Shown here piece by piece: positions 4,056 through 63,373 of a DNA stretch of 64,000 bases. This DNA comes from Candidatus Faecicola pullistercoris (GTDB lineage: Bacteria; Bacillota; Clostridia; Christensenellales; CAG-917): positions 5,689 to 69,688 of the forward strand of contig DVNW01000006.1 in assembly GCA_018714105.1 (NCBI GenBank), written 5' to 3'. The notes beneath the pieces were generated by a model. It worked only from the letters and a program-made list of their open reading frames with translations, searched no databases and was not told the origin of the DNA. Position numbers and translations under genes: made by a program. Positions within the stretch are counted from its first letter, which is position 1. The number at the start of each line of letters is the position of its first letter.

Positions 4056-5057
4056 TTAATTGTTTTGGGATTGGATTAATTTTTGTGCAATCTGCACGGC
4101 GTTGGTGGCGGCGCCTTTTCTGATATTGTCGGCTACGCACCAGATATTGCAGCCGCTTTCCACGCTTTCGTCGATTCTTACGCGGCCGACAAACACTTCG
4201 TCCTTGCCCTCGGCGTCGATAGCCATGGGGTATACGCAGTTTGCGATGTCGTCTTTAAGCACGAGTCCTTCGGCGGAAGCGAGGGCGTCCTTAATTCCTT
4301 GCAGAGTACAGGGCTTTTCGAATTCTATATTGATGGATTCGCTGTGGCCGTGGAATACGGGCACTCTAACCGTGGTAGCCGTGATTTTAAGGCTTTGGTC
4401 GTGCAGAATTTTTTTGGTTTCTTCAATCATCTTCATTTCCTCTTTGGTGTATCCGTTGTCGAGGAATACGTCGATCTGAGGCAGACAGTTGGCGAAAATG
4501 GGGTGATTGAATTTTACGGGCGGCACGCCTTTGATACCGTCTTCGAGGTCCTTGTATCCCTGTACGCCCGCGCCCGAAACGGCCTGGTAAGTGCTGTATA
4601 CTATACGTTTGATTTTGTATTTGTCGTGAAGGGGTTTAAGGGCGACCATAGCCTGTATGGTAGAGCAGTTGGGGTTAGCGATAATACCCTTGTTCCACGC
4701 GATATCCTCGGGGTTGACCTCGGGAACTACAAGCGGGACTTCGGGATCCATGCGCCAGCAGCTGCTGTTGTCTATAACCACCGCGCCTTGCGCCGCAAAC
4801 ACGGGAGCAAAAGCCTTGCTTGTGCCCGCGCCGGCCGAAAACAGGGCGATATCTATATTGAGCGCTTTGACGTTTTCTTCGGTAAGCTCTATAACGGTGT
4901 GTTTTTTACCCATGAAATCTATTTCTTTACCCGCGCTTTTTTTGGAAGCGAACAGATAGTAATTTTCTACGGGCAGCTTTCTTTCGGAAAGAACCTTTAA
5001 AAACATGTTGCCGACCATACCGGTCGCGCCTACTACGGCGATATTGTATTTTTTCAT
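4056..5057 (-). CDS. asd: aspartate-semialdehyde dehydrogenase
   Basis: 333 aa. Contains VVGATGMVG NAD loop and the active-site ANPNCSTIQ. Confidence 0.95.
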   Translation of the reverse strand: MKKYNIAVVGATGMVGNMFLKVLSERKLPVENYYLFASKKSAGKEIDFMGKKHTVIELTEENVKALNIDIALFSAGAGTSKAFAPVFAAQGAVVIDNSSCWRMDPEVPLVVPEVNPEDIAWNKGIIANPNCSTIQAMVALKPLHDKYKIKRIVYSTYQAVSGAGVQGYKDLEDGIKGVPPVKFNHPIFANCLPQIDVFLDNGYTKEEMKMIEETKKILHDQSLKITATTVRVPVFHGHSESINIEFEKPCTLQGIKDALASAEGLVLKDDIANCVYPMAIDAEGKDEVFVGRVRIDESVESGCNIWCVADNIRKGAATNAVQIAQKLIQSQNN

Positions 5058-5127: not shown

Positions 5128-5292
5128 GTACCGAGTAGCCCTTCATCTAAAGATGACAGTCAGCAGGTTTTAACCTTACTGCCCAACGACGGTTTGCCAA
5201 GACGCCGCTTCGGCGATAATACCCTTTTTTCCGAAAGACGGGCCGGCTGCCCCATATAGTCGGAATACTGATGCTTATCGCTCCTCTACTTC
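5128..5292 (-). promoter_or_regulatory. Lysine riboswitch (L-box) leader of asd-dapA-dapB
   Basis: Minus strand reads GUAGAGGAGCG...CAGUAUUCCGA...AUCGCCGAAGCGGCG...UUGGGCAG...ACUGUCAUC...GGGCUACUC. This matches the conserved AGAGG(N)GC / GCCGAAG / CUGUCA blocks of lysC-type leaders. Confidence 0.8.
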
Positions 5293-5302
5293 TATTGGCC
5301 CT

Positions 5303-34334: not shown

Positions 34335-34426
34335 GGCAGAGTAGATAAATCGCGTTAAGTGTTACGGGATGGGATGTAGCCCGTAAACGAAAGGGAAACC
34401 TGCGGTGGTTTATCGCGTTCGCTGCA
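34335..34426 (+). promoter_or_regulatory. THF (tetrahydrofolate) riboswitch
   Basis: GGCAGAGTAGATAAATCGCGTTAAGTGTTACGGGATGGGATGTAGCCCGTAAACGAAAGGGAAACCTGCGGTGGTTTATCGCGTTCGCTGC closely parallels the folT-motif consensus (AGAGUAG..CGCGUUAAGUG...GGGAUG...ACGAA...GCGGUG...GCGUUCGCU). A downstream AACCTC/GAGGTT helix can occlude the SD. Confidence 0.85.
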
Positions 34427-34478: not shown

Positions 34479-35051
34479 ATGACTTATTATTCATCGCAAC
34501 AGGAAATGGACGCGGCGATAGCCGTTCGTCCGCAGGCCAAAAAGCGCCTGACCAACAAGCAGATTGCCTTTATTTCGGTATTTGTGGCCATTTCGGTAAC
34601 CGTAAACGCCGTAGCCGCAAGGGCAATGGGCAACAAACTGTCGTTCGCCTATACGATAGACTTTATGGCAGGATACTTTTTCGGCGGGATCGCGGGTCTT
34701 TTGGTAGGAGGCATAGGCGATTTGCTGGGCTGTCTTCTGGCCGGTTACGCGCCTAATCCTTTTATATTGCTTTCGTCCTGTCTTCTGGGATTTATACCGG
34801 GCATGGTAAAAAAGTTAAAGGTCAGTCTGCCCGCATCGATAGTTATAAGCTATGCTCTTACTCTGACTGTATGCACGGCGTTTATCAATACCTACGGCTT
34901 ATGGCTTATGTACGGCGGCGGACGCACCTTTTTCGCTTATATGGCGGTAAGGCTGACGGCTCAGGCGCCGGTAATAATCGCCAACATCGCGCTTACCTTT
35001 TTCATAATGCCGCTGTTCAGGAAGGTGCTTAAAGCCGAAATTTTCAATTAA
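34479..35051 (+). CDS. folT: ECF transporter S component, folate family
   Basis: 190-aa, 6-TM S-component-like protein directly behind the THF riboswitch. Confidence 0.8.
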   Translation: MTYYSSQQEMDAAIAVRPQAKKRLTNKQIAFISVFVAISVTVNAVAARAMGNKLSFAYTIDFMAGYFFGGIAGLLVGGIGDLLGCLLAGYAPNPFILLSSCLLGFIPGMVKKLKVSLPASIVISYALTLTVCTAFINTYGLWLMYGGGRTFFAYMAVRLTAQAPVIIANIALTFFIMPLFRKVLKAEIFN

Positions 35052-52801: not shown

Positions 52802-55800
52802 ATGTTAACCGAATTCAGCATTAAAAAGCCCTTTACCGTAGTGGTTTTAATGGTAATCATTCTGATACTCGGCGGCGTGTCTTACGCCAATGCCAGCGTG
52901 GATTTGCTTCCCGACATGAATCTCCCGTACCTGGTTGTGGCAACCGTTGCGGTAGGTTCTTCGCCCGAGCAGGTGGAAGCCAACGTCACCAAGCCCACCG
53001 AGGAGGTGCTGGCCACTCTTAACGACGTCAAGAACATATCGTCGATGTCGATGGAAAACGTATCCATGATAATTCTCGAATACGAGAGCAACGCCGATAT
53101 AGATTTAGCCATAGTCGACGTGCGCGAAAAGCTGAATATGCTCGACCTTATAGATTCGGTAGGCGATACCGTGACTTCGGTAACGGGCGACGGCGGCAGT
53201 GTAACGGATATGGTAAGCGGGTTGAATTTTACTCCCATAATAGTTAAACTCAATCCGTCGATGCTGCCCGTAATGATGATGACCATGAGCCTGAAAAACG
53301 CGGGGACGGAGCAGTCCGAGGCGAAATATAGAGAGATTATCAAAGAAATCGAAGCCGTGTCAGGCGTGGCGTCGGTATCCACGAGCGGACTTGTGGAAGA
53401 TCTTCTGCTGATGAAATTCAGCACGGGGCATCTTGCGCAGGACCTCGTTTCTCAGATAGACAACGAACTGGTCAGAAACATGTTTTACGGCATGCTCGAA
53501 GATTTCGATCTGAGCGGCGTTACCCAATCGGTGGGCGAGTTGCTTACGCCCGCACTGATTAAAACTCTGCTTTCGGCGCAGGACCTCGACATGCCTGTCG
53601 GCAGCACGGTAGAGCAGGAGCTCGGCTATTTCGTGAAGCTGGGCGATAAAATTCAGAGCAGGGAAGAGCTGGAAAACACGCCTCTTATAGGAATCGACGC
53701 GGGCGCGTTCGTTTCCGTTCTTAACGACCAAGCCGAAAAATTCGGCGGTACGGTTTATATAAACAAAGCAGCTCTTCAGGCCGCCTTCGAAAGCGTAGCC
53801 CTCATCGGACAGTCCGTGACTACGGTTAAGGAAACCCATAAGGTAGAAACCGTGCCCGACGGCGACGGCGTAACCGAAACCATAGATGTTGTAACCGAAA
53901 AAGAAGTTAAACTGTCGGTTCAGCTTACAGAAACCGTGTTCAGCGGCATTAAGAACATGGAAAATCCTCTCCTGTCGGTAGTTACGAGAGGGGACGAGGA
54001 AGTCCTTTCGGTAAGCGAATCGGTCTTCGGCGCGCTCACGGGCGCCTTTATGCCTTCCGACGGATACGCGGGGCAGAAGTTTTATCTTACTCTGGGTTCG
54101 GTAACGGATATTTACGACCTTAACACTTCGGGCGAATTCATCACAAGTCTTAACGGCGAGCCTACCGTCTCGCTGACCATAATGAAACAGCCGAGCGGTT
54201 CCACGGTCGAGGTGTCGGACGAGATCAACGCCATTCTTCAAAAACACGCAGAGGAGGACCCCGACTTTACCTATCTCGCGCTGTTCGACCAGGGCGATTA
54301 CATCAACGTGGTTATAGACAGCATTATCGAAAACATGCTGCTGGGCGCCGTGTTTGCGGTAATAGTGCTTATTATCTTTTTAAGACGCATTAAACCCACT
54401 TTGCTTGTTACGGTATCCATAGCGATAAGCGTTGTAGCCACTTTCGTACTGATGTACCTTTCGGGTATTACGCTCAACATCGTTTCCATGGGCGGTCTGG
54501 CACTGGGAATAGGAATGCTGGTAGATAATTCCATAGTGGTAATAGAGAACATATACAGGCACCGAGGGTTGGGGAAAGACCCGTTACGGGCCTCGATCGA
54601 CGGCGCGAAGCAGGTTACGGGCGCAATAGTGTCTTCCACGCTTACCACGATAATAGTATTTCTGCCCTTGCTGTTCACGCAAGGAATAGTGCGTCAGATT
54701 TTTGCGGACATGGCGATAACGATTGCATTCTCGCTTGTGGCCAGCCTTATATTCGCGATAACCCTGGTGCCGCTTACCATGACTACCAAAGTATTCGGAA
54801 GCCAGAAAGCGGCAAAGGACAAAAATTTCGACAAATTCAAGGACTTTTACGCAAAAGTGCTTACTTACGCGCTTAACCGCAGGTGGATTACCGTGCTTCT
54901 GGTTACCGTACTGTTTGCGGGCAGCGTGACGGGCGCCTTCTTTATGGGCATAGAGTTTTTCCCGTCTTCGGACACGGGCAGACTTTCGCTGACGGTGGAA
55001 TTCAATCTCGACAATCTGCCCGAGGACATGACTTATAACGATCTGTCCGTACGTACCGTCGAGGACATAAACAAAAAAGTAACGGCTCTCGATTACGTGC
55101 AAACCGTGGGTATATCCGAATCCACCGGGCTTATGGGCATGGTAGGCGGAGATATGGTTGCTTCGGCATCCACCACGCACACGCTTACGGGATATATAAT
55201 TCTGGACCCGAAAGCCCGTATATCCGACAGCCGCGCGGCCACGGAGATAAGTAAGCTGATAGAAAGCGAGGACGGACTTTACGTAACCGATCTGAAGACG
55301 GATTCTTCAAGTAACAACATAATGGCCGGATATCTGGGCGATTCGCTGTCGCTAAACGTTTACGGCGACGACCTTGACGATCTGATTCAGGCTACCGGTC
55401 AGATACAGGCCGCTTTGAGCGAAATCGACGGCGTTACGAACATTACTTCGGGGCTGGACGACGCTCAGCTCGAATACAATCTTACGATAGACAAGAACAA
55501 AGCCAGCGAATACGGCGTTTACGTCGGTACGGCAATGCTCTCCGTGATGCAGGCGCTGCAGACGGGCGAAGCGGGGGCCGAACTTACGTTTAAAGGAAGT
55601 CAGTCGTCCACTTCTCTTACGATATATCCGTCGGACGTCGTTATACAGATATGGAAACGCGCCGCCGGCGATAACGGTACAAGCGTAGCGATTTACCTCG
55701 AACAGACCAAAATATATAAATTCGAAAACAACGCTTCGTCCAGGTATTACGTATTGAATTCGGGCGAGGCATTTACGGCGGGCGACGGAACTTACGTCGA

Positions 55801-57163
55801 GCAGGGCGATAAAATATATCTTACTCCGACCGACGGTTCGGTTTACGAGTACGTCGTAACAAGCGGCGATAAAACCTCGGTAAAAGAGATAAGTCTTAAC
55901 GGCGGTTTCGTTTACAGGGAAAATGCTTACGTTGTAAATTACGGCGAGGCCTTGATTTTAAGCGACGGCACGTCCGTACCCGCCGGAGGCAGGATATATC
56001 TGTCCTACGCAGACGGCAAATATTATTATAATCGGGCGGACGGGGGCGCAGTAAGCTATACGCCTGACGCCAACAACAAAATTTACTACTCGGCCGCCGA
56101 ATCCGATCCCGTCAATCTGCTTACCATTCCCGTAGCATGCATGACGGCGGGCGATCTAGGCGATATATCGTCGGTGACGGGCGGAAATTCCACGGTAACC
56201 GTACCCTTGTGGAAACTGCTCGAGGACGACTGCTTCGTTAAGGATGCGGACGGCAACGTGCTGATGACCGTGGACGGCGAGGGGAATCCTATACCCGTCG
56301 GCATAGAAAAAAGCAAGAGTCAGATTACGGTTATGCGCGAAAACGGCAGAAGATACATGAGCGTATCGGCAGGCATCACCTCGGATACCGATATAGGCAG
56401 CGTGAAAACCGAAGTCGAAAAGGTTATCGGCAACCTCGGCCTGCCCTCGGGTATAACGTACGAATACGGCGGCCAGAGCGCGATAGTGGACGAAACCTTC
56501 GATACGATATATTTTGTATTAGGTATGGCGATACTGTTTATCTACCTTGTTATGGTGGCTCAGTTCCAGTCGCTGAAATCGCCCTTTATAGTGATGTTTA
56601 CCATACCTCTTGCATTTACGGGCAGCATACTGACCCTGATGATAAGCGGTATGAACCTCTCCGTCCCCGCGATGATAGGAATGGTCGTGCTTGTGGGCGT
56701 AGTGGTGAACAACGGTATAGTATTTGTGGATTACGCCAACAAACTGATAGACGCGGGTATGACGGTCAAAGAGGCTCTCGTGAAAACGGGCTGCGACAGA
56801 CTGAGGCCTATCCTCATGACCGCGCTCACCACGATATTCGCCATGCTTGCCATGGCGCTTGACGGCTCGGAAACCGGCGCGATGCTGAGGCCCATGGCGG
56901 TAGCCACGATGGGCGGACTCGCGTACGCCACACTGCTGACGCTGTTCTTCGTACCCGTGGTATACAGCGCGTTTAACAAAAACCGCAAGAAAAAGGACCG
57001 CATAGAGGAATATATGCTGGCCGAGCTCGAAGGCATGGAAGGAATTAATCTTACCTCCGGGTCCGAGGAAAGCGAACAGGCGCCCGCGGTGCTGGATATT
57101 CAGCAGCGCACGGCGGCCGGTTACGGAGGATCTGACGCGGGCAGAGACGACGGCAGGGTATAA
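52802..57163 (+). CDS. RND-superfamily efflux permease, unusually long (1453 aa)
   Basis: AcrB/SwrC-like topology: TM1, loop, TM2-6, TM7, loop, TM8-12. Conserved GIGMLVDNSIVVIENI and VGVVVNNGIVFVDY blocks. Both outer loops are about 480-515 aa. Confidence 0.85.
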   Translation: MLTEFSIKKPFTVVVLMVIILILGGVSYANASVDLLPDMNLPYLVVATVAVGSSPEQVEANVTKPTEEVLATLNDVKNISSMSMENVSMIILEYESNADIDLAIVDVREKLNMLDLIDSVGDTVTSVTGDGGSVTDMVSGLNFTPIIVKLNPSMLPVMMMTMSLKNAGTEQSEAKYREIIKEIEAVSGVASVSTSGLVEDLLLMKFSTGHLAQDLVSQIDNELVRNMFYGMLEDFDLSGVTQSVGELLTPALIKTLLSAQDLDMPVGSTVEQELGYFVKLGDKIQSREELENTPLIGIDAGAFVSVLNDQAEKFGGTVYINKAALQAAFESVALIGQSVTTVKETHKVETVPDGDGVTETIDVVTEKEVKLSVQLTETVFSGIKNMENPLLSVVTRGDEEVLSVSESVFGALTGAFMPSDGYAGQKFYLTLGSVTDIYDLNTSGEFITSLNGEPTVSLTIMKQPSGSTVEVSDEINAILQKHAEEDPDFTYLALFDQGDYINVVIDSIIENMLLGAVFAVIVLIIFLRRIKPTLLVTVSIAISVVATFVLMYLSGITLNIVSMGGLALGIGMLVDNSIVVIENIYRHRGLGKDPLRASIDGAKQVTGAIVSSTLTTIIVFLPLLFTQGIVRQIFADMAITIAFSLVASLIFAITLVPLTMTTKVFGSQKAAKDKNFDKFKDFYAKVLTYALNRRWITVLLVTVLFAGSVTGAFFMGIEFFPSSDTGRLSLTVEFNLDNLPEDMTYNDLSVRTVEDINKKVTALDYVQTVGISESTGLMGMVGGDMVASASTTHTLTGYIILDPKARISDSRAATEISKLIESEDGLYVTDLKTDSSSNNIMAGYLGDSLSLNVYGDDLDDLIQATGQIQAALSEIDGVTNITSGLDDAQLEYNLTIDKNKASEYGVYVGTAMLSVMQALQTGEAGAELTFKGSQSSTSLTIYPSDVVIQIWKRAAGDNGTSVAIYLEQTKIYKFENNASSRYYVLNSGEAFTAGDGTYVEQGDKIYLTPTDGSVYEYVVTSGDKTSVKEISLNGGFVYRENAYVVNYGEALILSDGTSVPAGGRIYLSYADGKYYYNRADGGAVSYTPDANNKIYYSAAESDPVNLLTIPVACMTAGDLGDISSVTGGNSTVTVPLWKLLEDDCFVKDADGNVLMTVDGEGNPIPVGIEKSKSQITVMRENGRRYMSVSAGITSDTDIGSVKTEVEKVIGNLGLPSGITYEYGGQSAIVDETFDTIYFVLGMAILFIYLVMVAQFQSLKSPFIVMFTIPLAFTGSILTLMISGMNLSVPAMIGMVVLVGVVVNNGIVFVDYANKLIDAGMTVKEALVKTGCDRLRPILMTALTTIFAMLAMALDGSETGAMLRPMAVATMGGLAYATLLTLFFVPVVYSAFNKNRKKKDRIEEYMLAELEGMEGINLTSGSEESEQAPAVLDIQQRTAAGYGGSDAGRDDGRV

Positions 57164-60558: not shown

Positions 60559-60732
60559 TTATGCACGATTTATACATTTATACACTTTTTATAATTTAAT
60601 ATTGTATCAATATATAAAATATTTATATCGGTATACTTTTAATTATACAAAAATTTATACATAAAACGCTTGCTTTATGCAACTTATTGTGATAATATTA
60701 CATCAACAAAATTTTTTAAAGAGGTATTCAAA

Positions 60733-61617
60733 ATGAAAAAGACTTTTATAGTTTTGCTTCTTATAGCCGTACTCGTAACAGGGTGCTTTGCTCTTACCGC
60801 CTGCGGTAAAGACAAGTACAAAATCGGCGTTCAGTCGGGTACTACCGGCGAATTTTACGTAAAAGGCAATGCGGATATGCTGCTTGACGGTTTCAGCAAT
60901 ATCGATTGTCTCCCTTACAACAACGGCGGCCTTGCCGTTAAAGCCATGCTGGACGGCACCATCGACTTCGTTATCATCGACAACGAGCCCGCAAAACAGC
61001 TTGTAGCGCAGACCAAGGGCATTAAGATGATAGACATAGCCCTGACCACCGAGCAGTACGCTTTCGGCGTAGACAAAAATCAGGCCGAACTCCTTACCGC
61101 GCTCAACGCTTTCATAGCCGAAATCAAGGCTGACGACACTCTCGACGCGATTTTCGAAAAATACAATTCTCTCGAATACGACGAAGATGGCAACGTAATC
61201 GGCGGCGACGACGCAATCGTAGGCATTACCAGCGCGACCAAGGATCTTTCCAAAGCCTCTCAGCAGCTTGTAGTTGCCACCAACGCGGCTTTTGCTCCCT
61301 ATGAATACAAGAAGGGCAATACCTTTGCCGGTATCGATATGGAAATAGCCAAACTCTTTGCCGATAAGCAGGGGCTCGAACTCGTTATAGAAGATATGGA
61401 CTTTGACGCGGTAGTTACTTCGGTAGGCAATAACGGCGTTGACGTAGCCATGGCAGGTCTGTCGGTAACGGCTACCAGAAAGCAGTCCGTAAACTTCTCC
61501 GACGCTTATTACGAGGGTGCTTATCAGGTTCTTATCGTTAAAGAAGGCGATACCACTTTTGAAGGATGCGAAACCGCGGCGGACATCGAAACCATCCTGA
61601 AGGCTCTTACCAAATAA
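60733..61617 (+). CDS. Amino-acid ABC transporter substrate-binding lipoprotein, halves in permuted order
   Basis: Lipobox LTAC. aa 29-146 align to the C-terminal half of GlnH-type SBPs. aa 177-273 align to the N-terminal half. Confidence 0.85.
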   Translation: MKKTFIVLLLIAVLVTGCFALTACGKDKYKIGVQSGTTGEFYVKGNADMLLDGFSNIDCLPYNNGGLAVKAMLDGTIDFVIIDNEPAKQLVAQTKGIKMIDIALTTEQYAFGVDKNQAELLTALNAFIAEIKADDTLDAIFEKYNSLEYDEDGNVIGGDDAIVGITSATKDLSKASQQLVVATNAAFAPYEYKKGNTFAGIDMEIAKLFADKQGLELVIEDMDFDAVVTSVGNNGVDVAMAGLSVTATRKQSVNFSDAYYEGAYQVLIVKEGDTTFEGCETAADIETILKALTK

Positions 61618-61623
61618 TAAACG

Positions 61624-62325
61624 ATGGACGTAAAGTGGGATAAATTTTATGCGCAGTTTGTAACCTACGGCGGTTACAAAAACGTTCTCGAAGGACTTTT
61701 GAACACGGTTGAGATAGCCGTGTTCGGTCTTTTGATAGGTATAGTCATAGGCACGCTTATAGCTATAACCAAAGTAGTGCCGCAATACAAACTGGGCGCA
61801 AAAATCCTGTCGAGGACAAGCGACGTATACGTGAGTTTTTTTAGAGGGACGCCTATGGTGGTTCAGCTGCTGATAGGCTATTTTATACTTATACCCGCGC
61901 TCAATCTCAGGATAGACAACGTGTCCGTCGCCATAATCATATTCGGACTTAACAGCGGCGCGTACGTTTCCGAAATAATGCGCTCGGGTATACAGTCGGT
62001 TGACGTGGGCCAGCTCGAAGCTGCAAGGGCTTTGGGCCTGGGGTACGGCACGTCCATGCTTAAAGTGGTTATACCGCAGGCAATCAAAAACATTCTGCCT
62101 ACGCTGGGCAACGAGTTTATCGTACTTATCAAGGAAACTTCGGTAACAAGTTTTATAGCCGTAGTCGACCTTACAAAGGCATTCAGGTCTATTGCCGACG
62201 CCAACTACGAGTACATAATACCCTATCTGATACTGGCGGCGGTATATCTCGTGCTCGTAATAATAATAACTATAGGCATAAGATTGATGGAAAGGAGGCT
62301 TGCCAAGAGTGATAGACGTAATTAA
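61624..62325 (+). CDS. Amino-acid ABC transporter permease
   Basis: HisM/GlnP-type, 5 TM, EAA loop [23 protein letters not shown]. Confidence 0.92.
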
Positions 62326-63373
62326 TCTGACCAAAAAATTCGGCAACCTTCTTGTTCTCGACGACATAAGCGTTACCATAGAAAAAGGCGAAAAGGTAGC
62401 CATAATAGGGCCTTCCGGCGGCGGTAAATCGACGTTTTTGCGTTGCCTGAACGTACTTGAAGATCCTACCGCGGGCAAAATCGTGTTCGACGGCGTAGAT
62501 CTTGCCGACTTCAAGGTGGATATCAACGCTCACCGTCAGCAGATGGGCATGGTATTTCAGCAGTTCAATCTGTTCAACAACCTCAGCGTAAAGCAGAATA
62601 TTATGCTCGCGCCCGTCAAAATCGGTTTAAAGACGCTCAGAAAGCAGAAAGCGCACAACGCTTTCCTTCCCGTGTACAATAAATTTATCGATCTTTTCGG
62701 AAACAAATACAACAGCCGTATAGAAACAAAGGCGCGTAAAACAGAGGCTCGCATACAAAGCCTGAAAGCCGAACTCGCGCCCGTCGAAGCCGAATGGGAA
62801 AGCACCAAAACCATTACCGAGAAAGCGGGCAAGAGCTTTGCGACTTACGACGAAAAACTTACCGCGAAAAAGCTGGGGCTTACCGAAAAACTTGAAAAAC
62901 TCGAACGCAAACTCACCCATACCGTGCCGTTAAGCAGGAAAGAGGCTGTGGAGATAACGCTTTCCAAAGAACAAATCAAAAAAAACGCCGAGGAGACGGC
63001 ATACAGACTTCTTAAACGCATAGGGTTGGAAGACAAGGCCGAAGCATATCCGTCCACTTTGTCGGGCGGTCAGAAACAGCGCGTAGCCATAGCCAGGGCG
63101 CTTGCCATGAACCCCAAAGTAATGCTCTTCGACGAACCTACCTCGGCGCTCGATCCCGAAATGGTGGGCGAGGTGCTGGATCTTATCAAGCAGGTTGCCG
63201 ACGAGGGAATGACCATGGTGATAGTTACTCACGAGATGGGCTTTGCCAAGGAAGTGGCTTCCAGGATAATGTTTATGGACAGCGGCAAGATAGCCGAGGA
63301 CGGACCTCCGGAAAAGATTTTCAACAACCCCGAAAGCGACCGGTTGAAAGAGTTTTTGAGAAAGGTATTGTAA
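62309..63373 (+). CDS. Amino-acid ABC transporter ATP-binding protein with ~115-aa insertion
   Basis: Walker [11 protein letters not shown]-loop, LSGGQKQR, Walker [15 protein letters not shown] at 62309 (giving MIDVINL..., 10 nt after AGGAGG) is preferred to the TTG at 62300. Confidence 0.88.

Follow-up and report, generated by a model that had tools for sequence, protein, structure and literature searches.

A circularly permuted substrate-binding lipoprotein in a polar-amino-acid ABC importer operon of Candidatus Faecicola, and the varied chain orders of its relatives

We examined a 64,000-nucleotide stretch of Candidatus Faecicola pullistercoris DNA (assembly GCA_018714105.1, contig DVNW01000006.1, positions 5,689 to 69,688; hereafter the window, with all coordinates counted from its first nucleotide), which carries the gene for a substrate-binding protein (SBP) of an ATP-binding cassette (ABC) importer. 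An earlier note, made from the DNA letters alone, had proposed that the two halves of this protein stand in swapped order relative to E. coli GlnH. The halves are indeed out of order, and the residue ranges and nucleotide coordinates given for them were correct. The gene very probably encodes a functional, circularly permuted lipoprotein, anchored in the membrane, that serves as the SBP of a polar-amino-acid ABC importer made from three genes. The permuted protein is not unique; its large family has been cut at several points, of which this is one.

Results

Permuted chain order

A phmmer search of the sequences in the Protein Data Bank (PDB) matched the protein to the 233-residue chain of AncQR (4zv1) in two out-of-order stretches: query residues 179-280 aligned with 4zv1 residues 12-113 (independent E-value 7e-17), and residues 30-144 with 119-230 (2e-9). 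The pattern was repeated on 6svf, 4prs and other PDB chains. The Pfam hidden Markov model for SBP_bac_3 (PF00497) scored 106 bits vs. a gathering score of 26.4, which places the protein in that family, and here too the match fell into two out-of-order stretches instead of one collinear alignment. The GlnH and LAO models of NCBIfam also gave two stretches each, far under their equivalog cut-offs. The canonical order of an SBP_bac_3 chain (N-terminal part of lobe 1, lobe 2, C-terminal part of lobe 1) was recovered only when the protein was rejoined in silico as residues 165-294 followed by 25-164. In this form it aligned with 4zv1 as a single collinear stretch (residues 15-250 to 12-230, E-value 4e-29), as it did with the 248-position GlnH model (9-252 to positions 21-244) and with residues 1-220 of E. 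coli GlnBP (11-250, E-value 2e-26); the LAO profile, too, was matched end to end in one stretch. Judged from these sequence comparisons, the out-of-order homology of the two halves is far beyond chance. Orthology to GlnH was considered and rejected, as model NF007029 scored 96.9 bits with the native protein and 97.2 bits with the rejoined one against a cut-off of 303. The protein is thus by homology a member of SBP_bac_3, yet one without the canonical chain order and not a GlnH equivalog; of the earlier description as a GlnH-type SBP, the family assignment stood and GlnH itself did not.

The layout of the gene and its operon is given in Table 1. Segment I comprises lobe 2 from the strand KIGVQSGTTG on, followed by hinge strand 2 and the C-terminal helix pair of lobe 1, and it holds the pocket residues Q34, T37, T38 and D83. 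Segment II consists of the lobe-1 core, from beta1 (QLVVATNAAF) to DVAMAGLSVTATR, then hinge strand 1 (QVLIVK) and lastly the first helix of lobe 2, which forms the new C-terminal end of the chain; it contributes pocket residues N184, F187, F224, G242, S244 and R249. No SBP element has been lost, because the last 21 residues (274-294) correspond to the short lobe-2 helix that normally precedes the KIGVQ strand. The mature protein of 270 residues contains one set of SBP elements, in agreement with the earlier view that it amounts to one SBP and not two, and it lacks the two complete substrate-binding domains (SBDs) of a GlnP-type tandem.

Table 1. Features of the SBP gene and its operon in the window
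Feature	Coordinates	Strand	Remarks
Shine-Dalgarno sequence AAAGAGG	60718..60724	+	8 nucleotides ahead of the ATG; read from the sequence
SBP open reading frame (ORF)	60733..61617	+	intact, uninterrupted; 294-residue lipoprotein
Lipoprotein signal peptide	60733..60804	+	lipobox L-T-A-C; Cys24 is the predicted lipidated mature N-terminus; read from the sequence
Segment I, residues 25-146	60805..61170	+	equivalent to the C-terminal part of a canonical SBP
Linker, residues 147-176	61171..61260	+	joins the old C-terminus to the old N-terminus; predicted structured
Segment II, residues 177-294	61261..61614	+	equivalent to the N-terminal part of a canonical SBP
Stop codon TAA	61615..61617	+	permease start 6 nucleotides further on
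ABC importer permease	61624..62325	+	233 residues; polar-amino-acid type; single permease gene of the operon; Pfam BPD_transp_1, 4e-24
ABC ATPase, GlnQ-like	62300..63373	+	357 residues from TTG; Pfam ABC_tran, 4e-38 over residues 20-282

The translated N-terminus reads MKKTFIVLLLIAVLVTGCFALTAC followed by GKDK. Cys24 is invariant across 68 homologues and, with a lipobox read by eye, marks the product as a putative bacterial lipoprotein; the signal region matched Pfam LPAM_1 weakly and forms a helix (residues 2-22) in the AlphaFold2 model described below. Cys24 lies only 4 residues ahead of the first lobe-2 strand, KIGVQ, so that the anchor would sit at a different position in the fold than in ordinary SBPs, as had been suggested. 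A disulfide between Cys59 and Cys279, which would staple the new C-terminal helix, was rejected because the presence of one cysteine does not follow that of the other: 77 of 222 proteins of the window order and 68 of 142 of a second permuted order (cpA and cpB, respectively, defined below) have C279 but lack C59. A stop-free antisense ORF of 607 residues (60703-62526, minus strand) overlies the SBP and permease genes; it appears to be mechanical, with no sign of a real gene.

AlphaFold2 was run on the monomer only. The model built on an alignment of 68 same-order homologues reached a predicted local distance difference test score (pLDDT) of 90.0 and a predicted template-modelling score of 0.76, and it was preferred to a single-sequence model (pLDDT 34), which was set aside. 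Read in rejoined order, its elements are beta1 (178-183), alpha/beta units up to strand 238-244, a hinge strand (265-270), helix 282-291, strand 29-34, three more alpha/beta units, the second hinge strand (107-113) and helices 118-133 and 136-145. This order fits the beta-alpha pattern that we would expect of a GlnBP-type protein. From the order of the elements, the natural termini would therefore lie in a lobe-2 loop between the first helix and the first strand of that lobe, at about GlnBP residues 108-110. The linker (147-176) was predicted at a pLDDT of 81-95; it has short strands as far as residue 157 and a helix at 172-177, and in the model it looks like a packed element. The earlier note had described an acidic linker of about 30 residues; its length and joining role were confirmed, and it is predicted to be structured instead of a floppy acidic spacer.

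A Foldseek search of the PDB returned matches that were all type II periplasmic-binding-protein folds (probability 1.00), among them HisG, LysR effector domains, MetQ, OpuAC/BC, PstS and ModA. Template-modelling scores did not exceed 0.48 when normalized to the query or 0.53 when normalized to the target, with root-mean-square deviations of 7-12 Å, and no collinear structural twin was found in the PDB. Since Foldseek alignment is sequential, it is unable to reveal a permutation; it gives the fold class and the lack of a collinear twin.

Relatives and their chain orders

Chain orders were assigned from a HMMER search of 1.84 billion cluster representatives combined with doubled-sequence alignment to the rejoined window protein. 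The best 150 representatives included 88 single-domain proteins of 240-345 residues. No cut was present in 38 of these, which are canonical; 21 shared the window order (cpA), cut in the lobe-2 loop ahead of KIGVQ, and 23 (cpB) were cut in lobe 2 at about residue 97 of the window protein. The rarer orders were cpA2 (two proteins, cut directly after hinge strand 1), cpC (one, after beta1 of lobe 1) and cpD (one, ahead of the lobe-1 strand DIAMAGLT). Two proteins fell into no class, one a fragment without a lipobox and the other internally deleted. Every sequence of a non-canonical class that we inspected had its own signal peptide and lipobox.

The cpB chain starts with KVIDIPLTEEEYAFGVDKNQ (about window residue 97), ends with IIDEAPAQSIVRAINELN (about residue 96) and is continuous across the site of the window protein's termini; an example comes from a cultured isolate, Acetivibrio mesophilus N2K1 (locus L067). 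A second cpC cluster, P0314, shows 68% identity and has 11 members, and its 118 nearest relatives are all cpB. The cpD form comes from one contig of 2.65 kb. The usual SBP-permease-ATPase operon surrounds cpC and cpD as well as the canonical representatives P0440 and P0540. A canonical clade of the P0123 type (at least 38 clusters) is 59% identical to the window protein, about as near as other cpA clades (64%). One representative of 716 residues, P0130, has a cpA permuted SBD followed by a second, unrelated C-terminal domain that by eye resembles the BMP/PnrA type; it would be a fusion of two different receptors.

The window protein itself (HIU82718.1, from a metagenome-assembled genome (MAG) of a gut Clostridia member, Candidatus Faecicola) recurs in identical form on 19 or more contigs and belongs to a 90% cluster of 39 members. 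At least 120 clusters show 60-99% identity, and in 116 of the 120 the match takes in no less than 90% of the query. When one genome was scanned for each species, at least 574 related stretches emerged, and the best 80 loci were examined for order. The window order was found in 44 of them and cpB in the remaining 36, so that the arrangement first noted in a single gene extends to 44 species genomes among these loci. The same order occurs in independent MAGs from many studies; in a plasmid collection, a full-length homologue of this order was not found. A further cpA-type paralogue, with 37% identity, follows the ATPase gene in one related MAG (locus L027, 6647-7408, plus strand). In MAG RGIG4151 the operon is present on two contigs (L006 and L007), with match coordinates and identities the same in both.

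Binding pocket and operon

The residues expected of an alpha-amino-acid pocket are present in the rejoined alignment, with GlnBP residue numbers and with pocket roles drawn from published work on GlnBP and LAO. R249 aligns to GlnBP R75, presumably the ligand of the alpha-carboxylate, and D83 to D157, which we take to contact the alpha-ammonium group. G242 and S244 align to G68 and T70 of the Ser/Thr-Gly loop, and F187 and F224 to the aromatic pair F13 and F50. These residues would together supply the carboxylate Arg, ammonium Asp, Ser/Thr-Gly loop and aromatic pair of such a pocket. Side-chain contacts that differ from GlnBP are N184 for D10, Q34 for K115 and I82 for H156.

Ten pocket positions (N184, F187, F224, G242, S/T244, R249, Q34, T37, T38 and D83) were then mapped on 446 relatives of all chain orders. 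Each was kept in at least 96% of the cpA proteins (n=222) and in at least 93% of the cpB proteins (n=142; lowest Q34, 132/142, and T37, 133/142). Among canonical proteins (n=74), eight positions were kept in at least 96% and all in at least 88%, the lowest being G242 (65/74) and N184 (68/74), and all ten matched in the six proteins with rarer cuts (cpA2, cpC and cpD). The Arg, Asp, loop and aromatic residues were each retained in at least 88% of every large order class (438 relatives). By its residues the pocket is of the alpha-amino-acid binder type, and given its conservation the SBP is therefore taken as the working receptor of the importer. Its ligand is most likely a single polar amino acid, bound by ordinary flytrap closure. 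No Rfam family, whether riboswitch or T-box leader, was found upstream of the operon to name the ligand, and promoter and terminator scans were uninformative.

The two downstream genes complete an operon of the polar-amino-acid transporter (PAAT) type, with a HEQRo-type permease and a GlnQ/HisP-type ATPase. The permease scored 79.6 bits vs. a cut-off of 42.2 with NCBIfam HEQRo_perm_3TM, and its matches to GlnP- and EhuC-like models stayed under the equivalog cut-offs. The ATPase, which may in fact start at the GTG of codon 4, matched NCBIfam GlnQ in two stretches (315 bits vs. a cut-off of 379). The permease gene was directly 3' of the SBP gene in all related loci long enough to show it (78 of 80); in the species genomes with the cpA order, permease and ATPase genes followed directly wherever the contig was long enough (43 of 44).

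The ATPase contains a charged, coiled-coil-like insertion of about 115 residues, located after the Q-loop region (about residue 103) and ahead of the helix that precedes the LSGGQ signature (about residue 224). In 73 related loci the ATPase length ranged from 243 residues (no insert) through the commonest size of about 277 up to 358-359. A tie between this insertion and SBP order was rejected, as insert length varies independently of order.

Origin of the permuted forms

Relationships among the orders were estimated from a neighbour-joining tree (200 bootstraps) of a de-permuted alignment of about 250 columns, a distance tree in which deep branching is unreliable and close pairs are robust. 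Several close pairs differ in order. Bootstrap support was 100% for canonical P0216 with cpB P0262 (70% identity), cpB P0141 with canonical P0540 (74%), canonical P0163 with cpD P0263 (52%) and cpA2 P0233 with canonical P0228 (66%), as it was for the nesting of cpC within cpB (62-65%). The cpA representative P0176 grouped with a pair of canonical P0198 and cpB P0252 (bootstrap 99.5%, and 92% for the pair; 60% identity between P0198 and P0252), and cpA P0129 with canonical P0140 (97.5%; 58% identity). The clades of mixed order are disjoint; therefore, at least eight independent switches of order are implied.

Traces of the linker persist in canonical relatives. The second half of the window linker, ITSATKDLSKASQQLVVATNAAF, matches the tether that follows the lipobox in canonical P0123, ESATKDLNKADKQLVVATNAAF. 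The linker motif of the permuted proteins, (I/V)xSAxxDxSK, lies at the N-terminal end of the mature chain in canonical P0123 and P0457 but at the C-terminus in canonical P0540, and the N-terminal extension of canonical P0216 is almost the whole linker of its cpB sister. Therefore, at least some proteins classed as canonical seem to descend from an ancestor in linked form, permuted or tandem, that was re-cut inside the linker.

Candidate intermediates occur among the relatives as well. P0153 (387 residues) is a 1.5-domain form consisting of the C-part, the linker and a complete SBD; P0127 is a permease-fused tandem array ending in the cpA2 phase; and P0148, P0173, P0199 and P0255 have permuted SBDs joined to a permease. 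P0125 (2009 residues) and P0162 (2001 residues) are arrays with 7-8 SBP_bac_3 units in a single polypeptide; any repeat phase of such an array is collinear with a permutant. The route put forward in the earlier note, a tandem duplication followed by loss of both outer halves, gains support from the homology of the linker to a canonical tether, from P0153 and from the tandem arrays.

It is an evenly balanced proposition that natural circular permutation has recurred in this Clostridia subfamily so often as to make it a hot spot, with five or more non-canonical cuts and at least eight switches among relatives up to 74% identical. The cuts of cpA, cpA2 and cpB lie in lobe 2 and those of cpC and cpD in lobe 1, within one fold, one pocket and one operon slot. 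The hot spot would include proteins that appear to have been rotated back to the canonical order, with pieces of linker left at either end.

Other features of the window

Three further features were noted outside the operon. A lysine riboswitch (Rfam RF00168, 76 bits) lies at 5128-5296 on the minus strand, upstream of a minus-strand ORF (4056..5057), and a tetrahydrofolate riboswitch (RF01831, 76 bits) at 34335-34426 on the plus strand, just upstream of ORF 34479..35051. A plus-strand ORF of 1453 residues (52802-57163) is of the AcrB or resistance-nodulation-division transporter type; it matches the 1021-position ACR_tran model in three stretches and has about 400 extra residues.

Discussion

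The protein appears to combine an ordinary two-lobe class F, type II fold and an ordinary alpha-amino-acid pocket with a permuted chain. The chain would start at its lipid anchor in lobe 2 and, by way of hinge 2, reach the helices at the C-terminal end of lobe 1, from where the structured linker of about 30 residues would span to the old N-terminus. It would next form the lobe-1 core, pass through hinge 1 and finish with the first lobe-2 helix. As in GlnH/ArtJ-type receptors, an alpha-amino acid would presumably be bound by Venus-flytrap closure and handed to the permease dimer, so that the sole difference from a canonical receptor would be the tether point, which is predicted to have moved from lobe 1 to lobe 2, where it lies 4 residues from the lipid. 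We infer that SBP units were first duplicated in tandem and in frame, or fused, and that the outer halves were lost afterwards, and that recurrence of this process in the subfamily may have produced the several cut points.

Fold family (SBP_bac_3), pocket design and transporter type are shared with the class F, type II polar-amino-acid SBPs GlnH/GlnBP (1GGG/1WDN) and AncQR (4ZV1). However, the window chain is permuted relative to these proteins, with termini in lobe 2 near GlnBP residue 110 and a structured linker of 30 residues between the old termini. The tandem SBDs of Lactococcus lactis GlnPQ (6H30) provide another comparison: the window protein matches the central part of an SBD1-SBD2 tandem in unbroken order, and such tandems are the expected intermediates of a permutation, but it is one domain's worth, lipid-anchored and not fused to a permease.

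Natural permutation is known in other classes of SBP. TpMglB-2 (Tp0684) of Treponema pallidum is a circularly permuted, lipid-anchored type I sugar-binding lipoprotein for which its authors proposed the label 'Type Ic / Cluster Bc' (PMC4990184). The first three strands of a lobe have moved to the C-terminus, which makes a fourth hinge crossing necessary, and a single cut point is described; the permuted part is poorly conserved, and the protein retains function, as judged by glucose binding and closure (PMC4990184). Homologues of TpMglB-2 were found mainly in organisms with tethered SBPs, and a link to tethering was speculated on (PMC4990184). The window protein is likewise a natural, permuted, lipid-anchored ABC binding protein, but it is no type I, cluster B sugar binder and does not belong to Cluster Bc, as all its matches are type II and SBP_bac_3. 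The glycine-betaine binders OpuAC of Bacillus subtilis and ProX of E. coli and Archaeoglobus fulgidus are also related by a permutation, detected with CPSARST from structure only at below 24% identity (PMC2395249). They resemble the present case in that the permutation falls within type II-fold binding proteins of ABC importers, although subfamily and ligand are others and the permuted and canonical forms here are up to 74% identical.

Within class F, permutants have been engineered for Förster resonance energy transfer (FRET) sensors. In cpLAO-BP the old termini were joined by (GGS)4 and the chain was cut in a hinge segment; lysine was still bound, with a 36-fold loss of affinity (PMC5087393). 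Further class F permutants for FRET sensors are attributed to Okada (2009), as cited in PMC5087393. As in the window protein, a linker connects the two old termini, which both belong to lobe 1, and the new termini lie elsewhere, but cpLAO-BP is man-made, whereas the natural forms are cut in surface loops with both hinges kept. In open-access full texts we found no report of natural permutation in the SBP_bac_3 polar-amino-acid family or of a series with several cuts, an absence that is not proof. Natural permutation was found there only for TpMglB-2 and the glycine-betaine binders OpuAC and ProX, next to the engineered cases.

Some points weigh against a working permuted receptor. The SBP does not reach the equivalog cut-offs of GlnH, LAO or other models, the AlphaFold2 model depends on the alignment of same-order homologues alone, and a selective reason for the moved tether is not evident. 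The strain-relief idea raised for TpMglB-2 is not obviously applicable, because the new N-terminal strand of the window protein also carries the pocket residues Q34, T37 and T38.

Four alternatives were weighed against the monomeric receptor. The binding unit could be formed by a domain-swapped dimer, with segment I from one chain and segment II from another. Permutation and domain swapping are related phenomena and the model was computed as a monomer only, but the arrangement seems improbable: at 30 residues the linker exceeds the 12 that sufficed in engineered cpLAO-BP (PMC5087393), it is predicted with high confidence as a packed structure, and relatives with linkers of 20 residues retain the design. 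The gene could also be the decaying, non-functional remnant of a two-domain tandem-SBD protein that kept its inner halves. Its product lines up in order with L. lactis GlnP (6h30) from the C-half of SBD1 through the linker into the N-half of SBD2, even showing a short linker likeness (ITSATKD vs. IT-ATKK), and both tandem arrays and a 1.5-domain form occur among its relatives. However, a remnant would hardly be expected to hold exactly one complete set of elements behind an intact signal peptide and lipobox, with pocket residues kept across 222 same-order clusters, operon position kept in 44 species genomes and a confident monomer model, and we regard this origin as very unlikely.

A role as sensor or adhesin in place of transport receptor would draw on the occurrence of SBP_bac_3 domains in kinases, MltF and adhesins, seen in the NCBIfam matches, but it is scarcely credible for a stand-alone lipoprotein that in almost every relative is translationally coupled to permease and ATPase genes and that in P0148 and P0255 is fused directly to a permease. 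Finally, an assembly or gene-calling chimera, conceivable in that the window comes from a metagenome-type assembly and named in the earlier note among the things that would undo its claim, is effectively refuted by the identical protein on 19 contigs and cluster members on many more, the same order in independent MAGs and 44 species genomes, the other permuted order in the cultured A. mesophilus N2K1, and the uninterrupted ORF with its ribosome-binding site and tightly coupled downstream gene.

Conclusions

SBPs are textbook models for hinge-bending, for the coupling of ABC importers and for biosensor design, and engineers have permuted them by hand. The family described here appears to offer hundreds of permuted, evidently functional natural versions with different termini beside close canonical relatives. 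The biology of the window's transporter is ordinary and its chain topology is not; the repeated re-cutting across the family is the more surprising part, beyond any single gene. Permutation of this kind is hidden by automated annotation ('transporter substrate-binding domain-containing protein') and by tables of hidden Markov model domains, where half-length matches may be misread as fragments. The family also documents the duplication-truncation route to permutation, surviving intermediates included. Its matched sets suit the questions of how a lipid tether on lobe 1 vs. lobe 2 affects delivery to the permease, how connectivity bears on open/closed dynamics and folding, and which cut sites the fold tolerates. 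If the subfamily is indeed a hot spot, it would constitute an unusually dense natural permutation series, and a ready experiment on how connectivity and tether position relate to folding, hinge dynamics and receptor docking.

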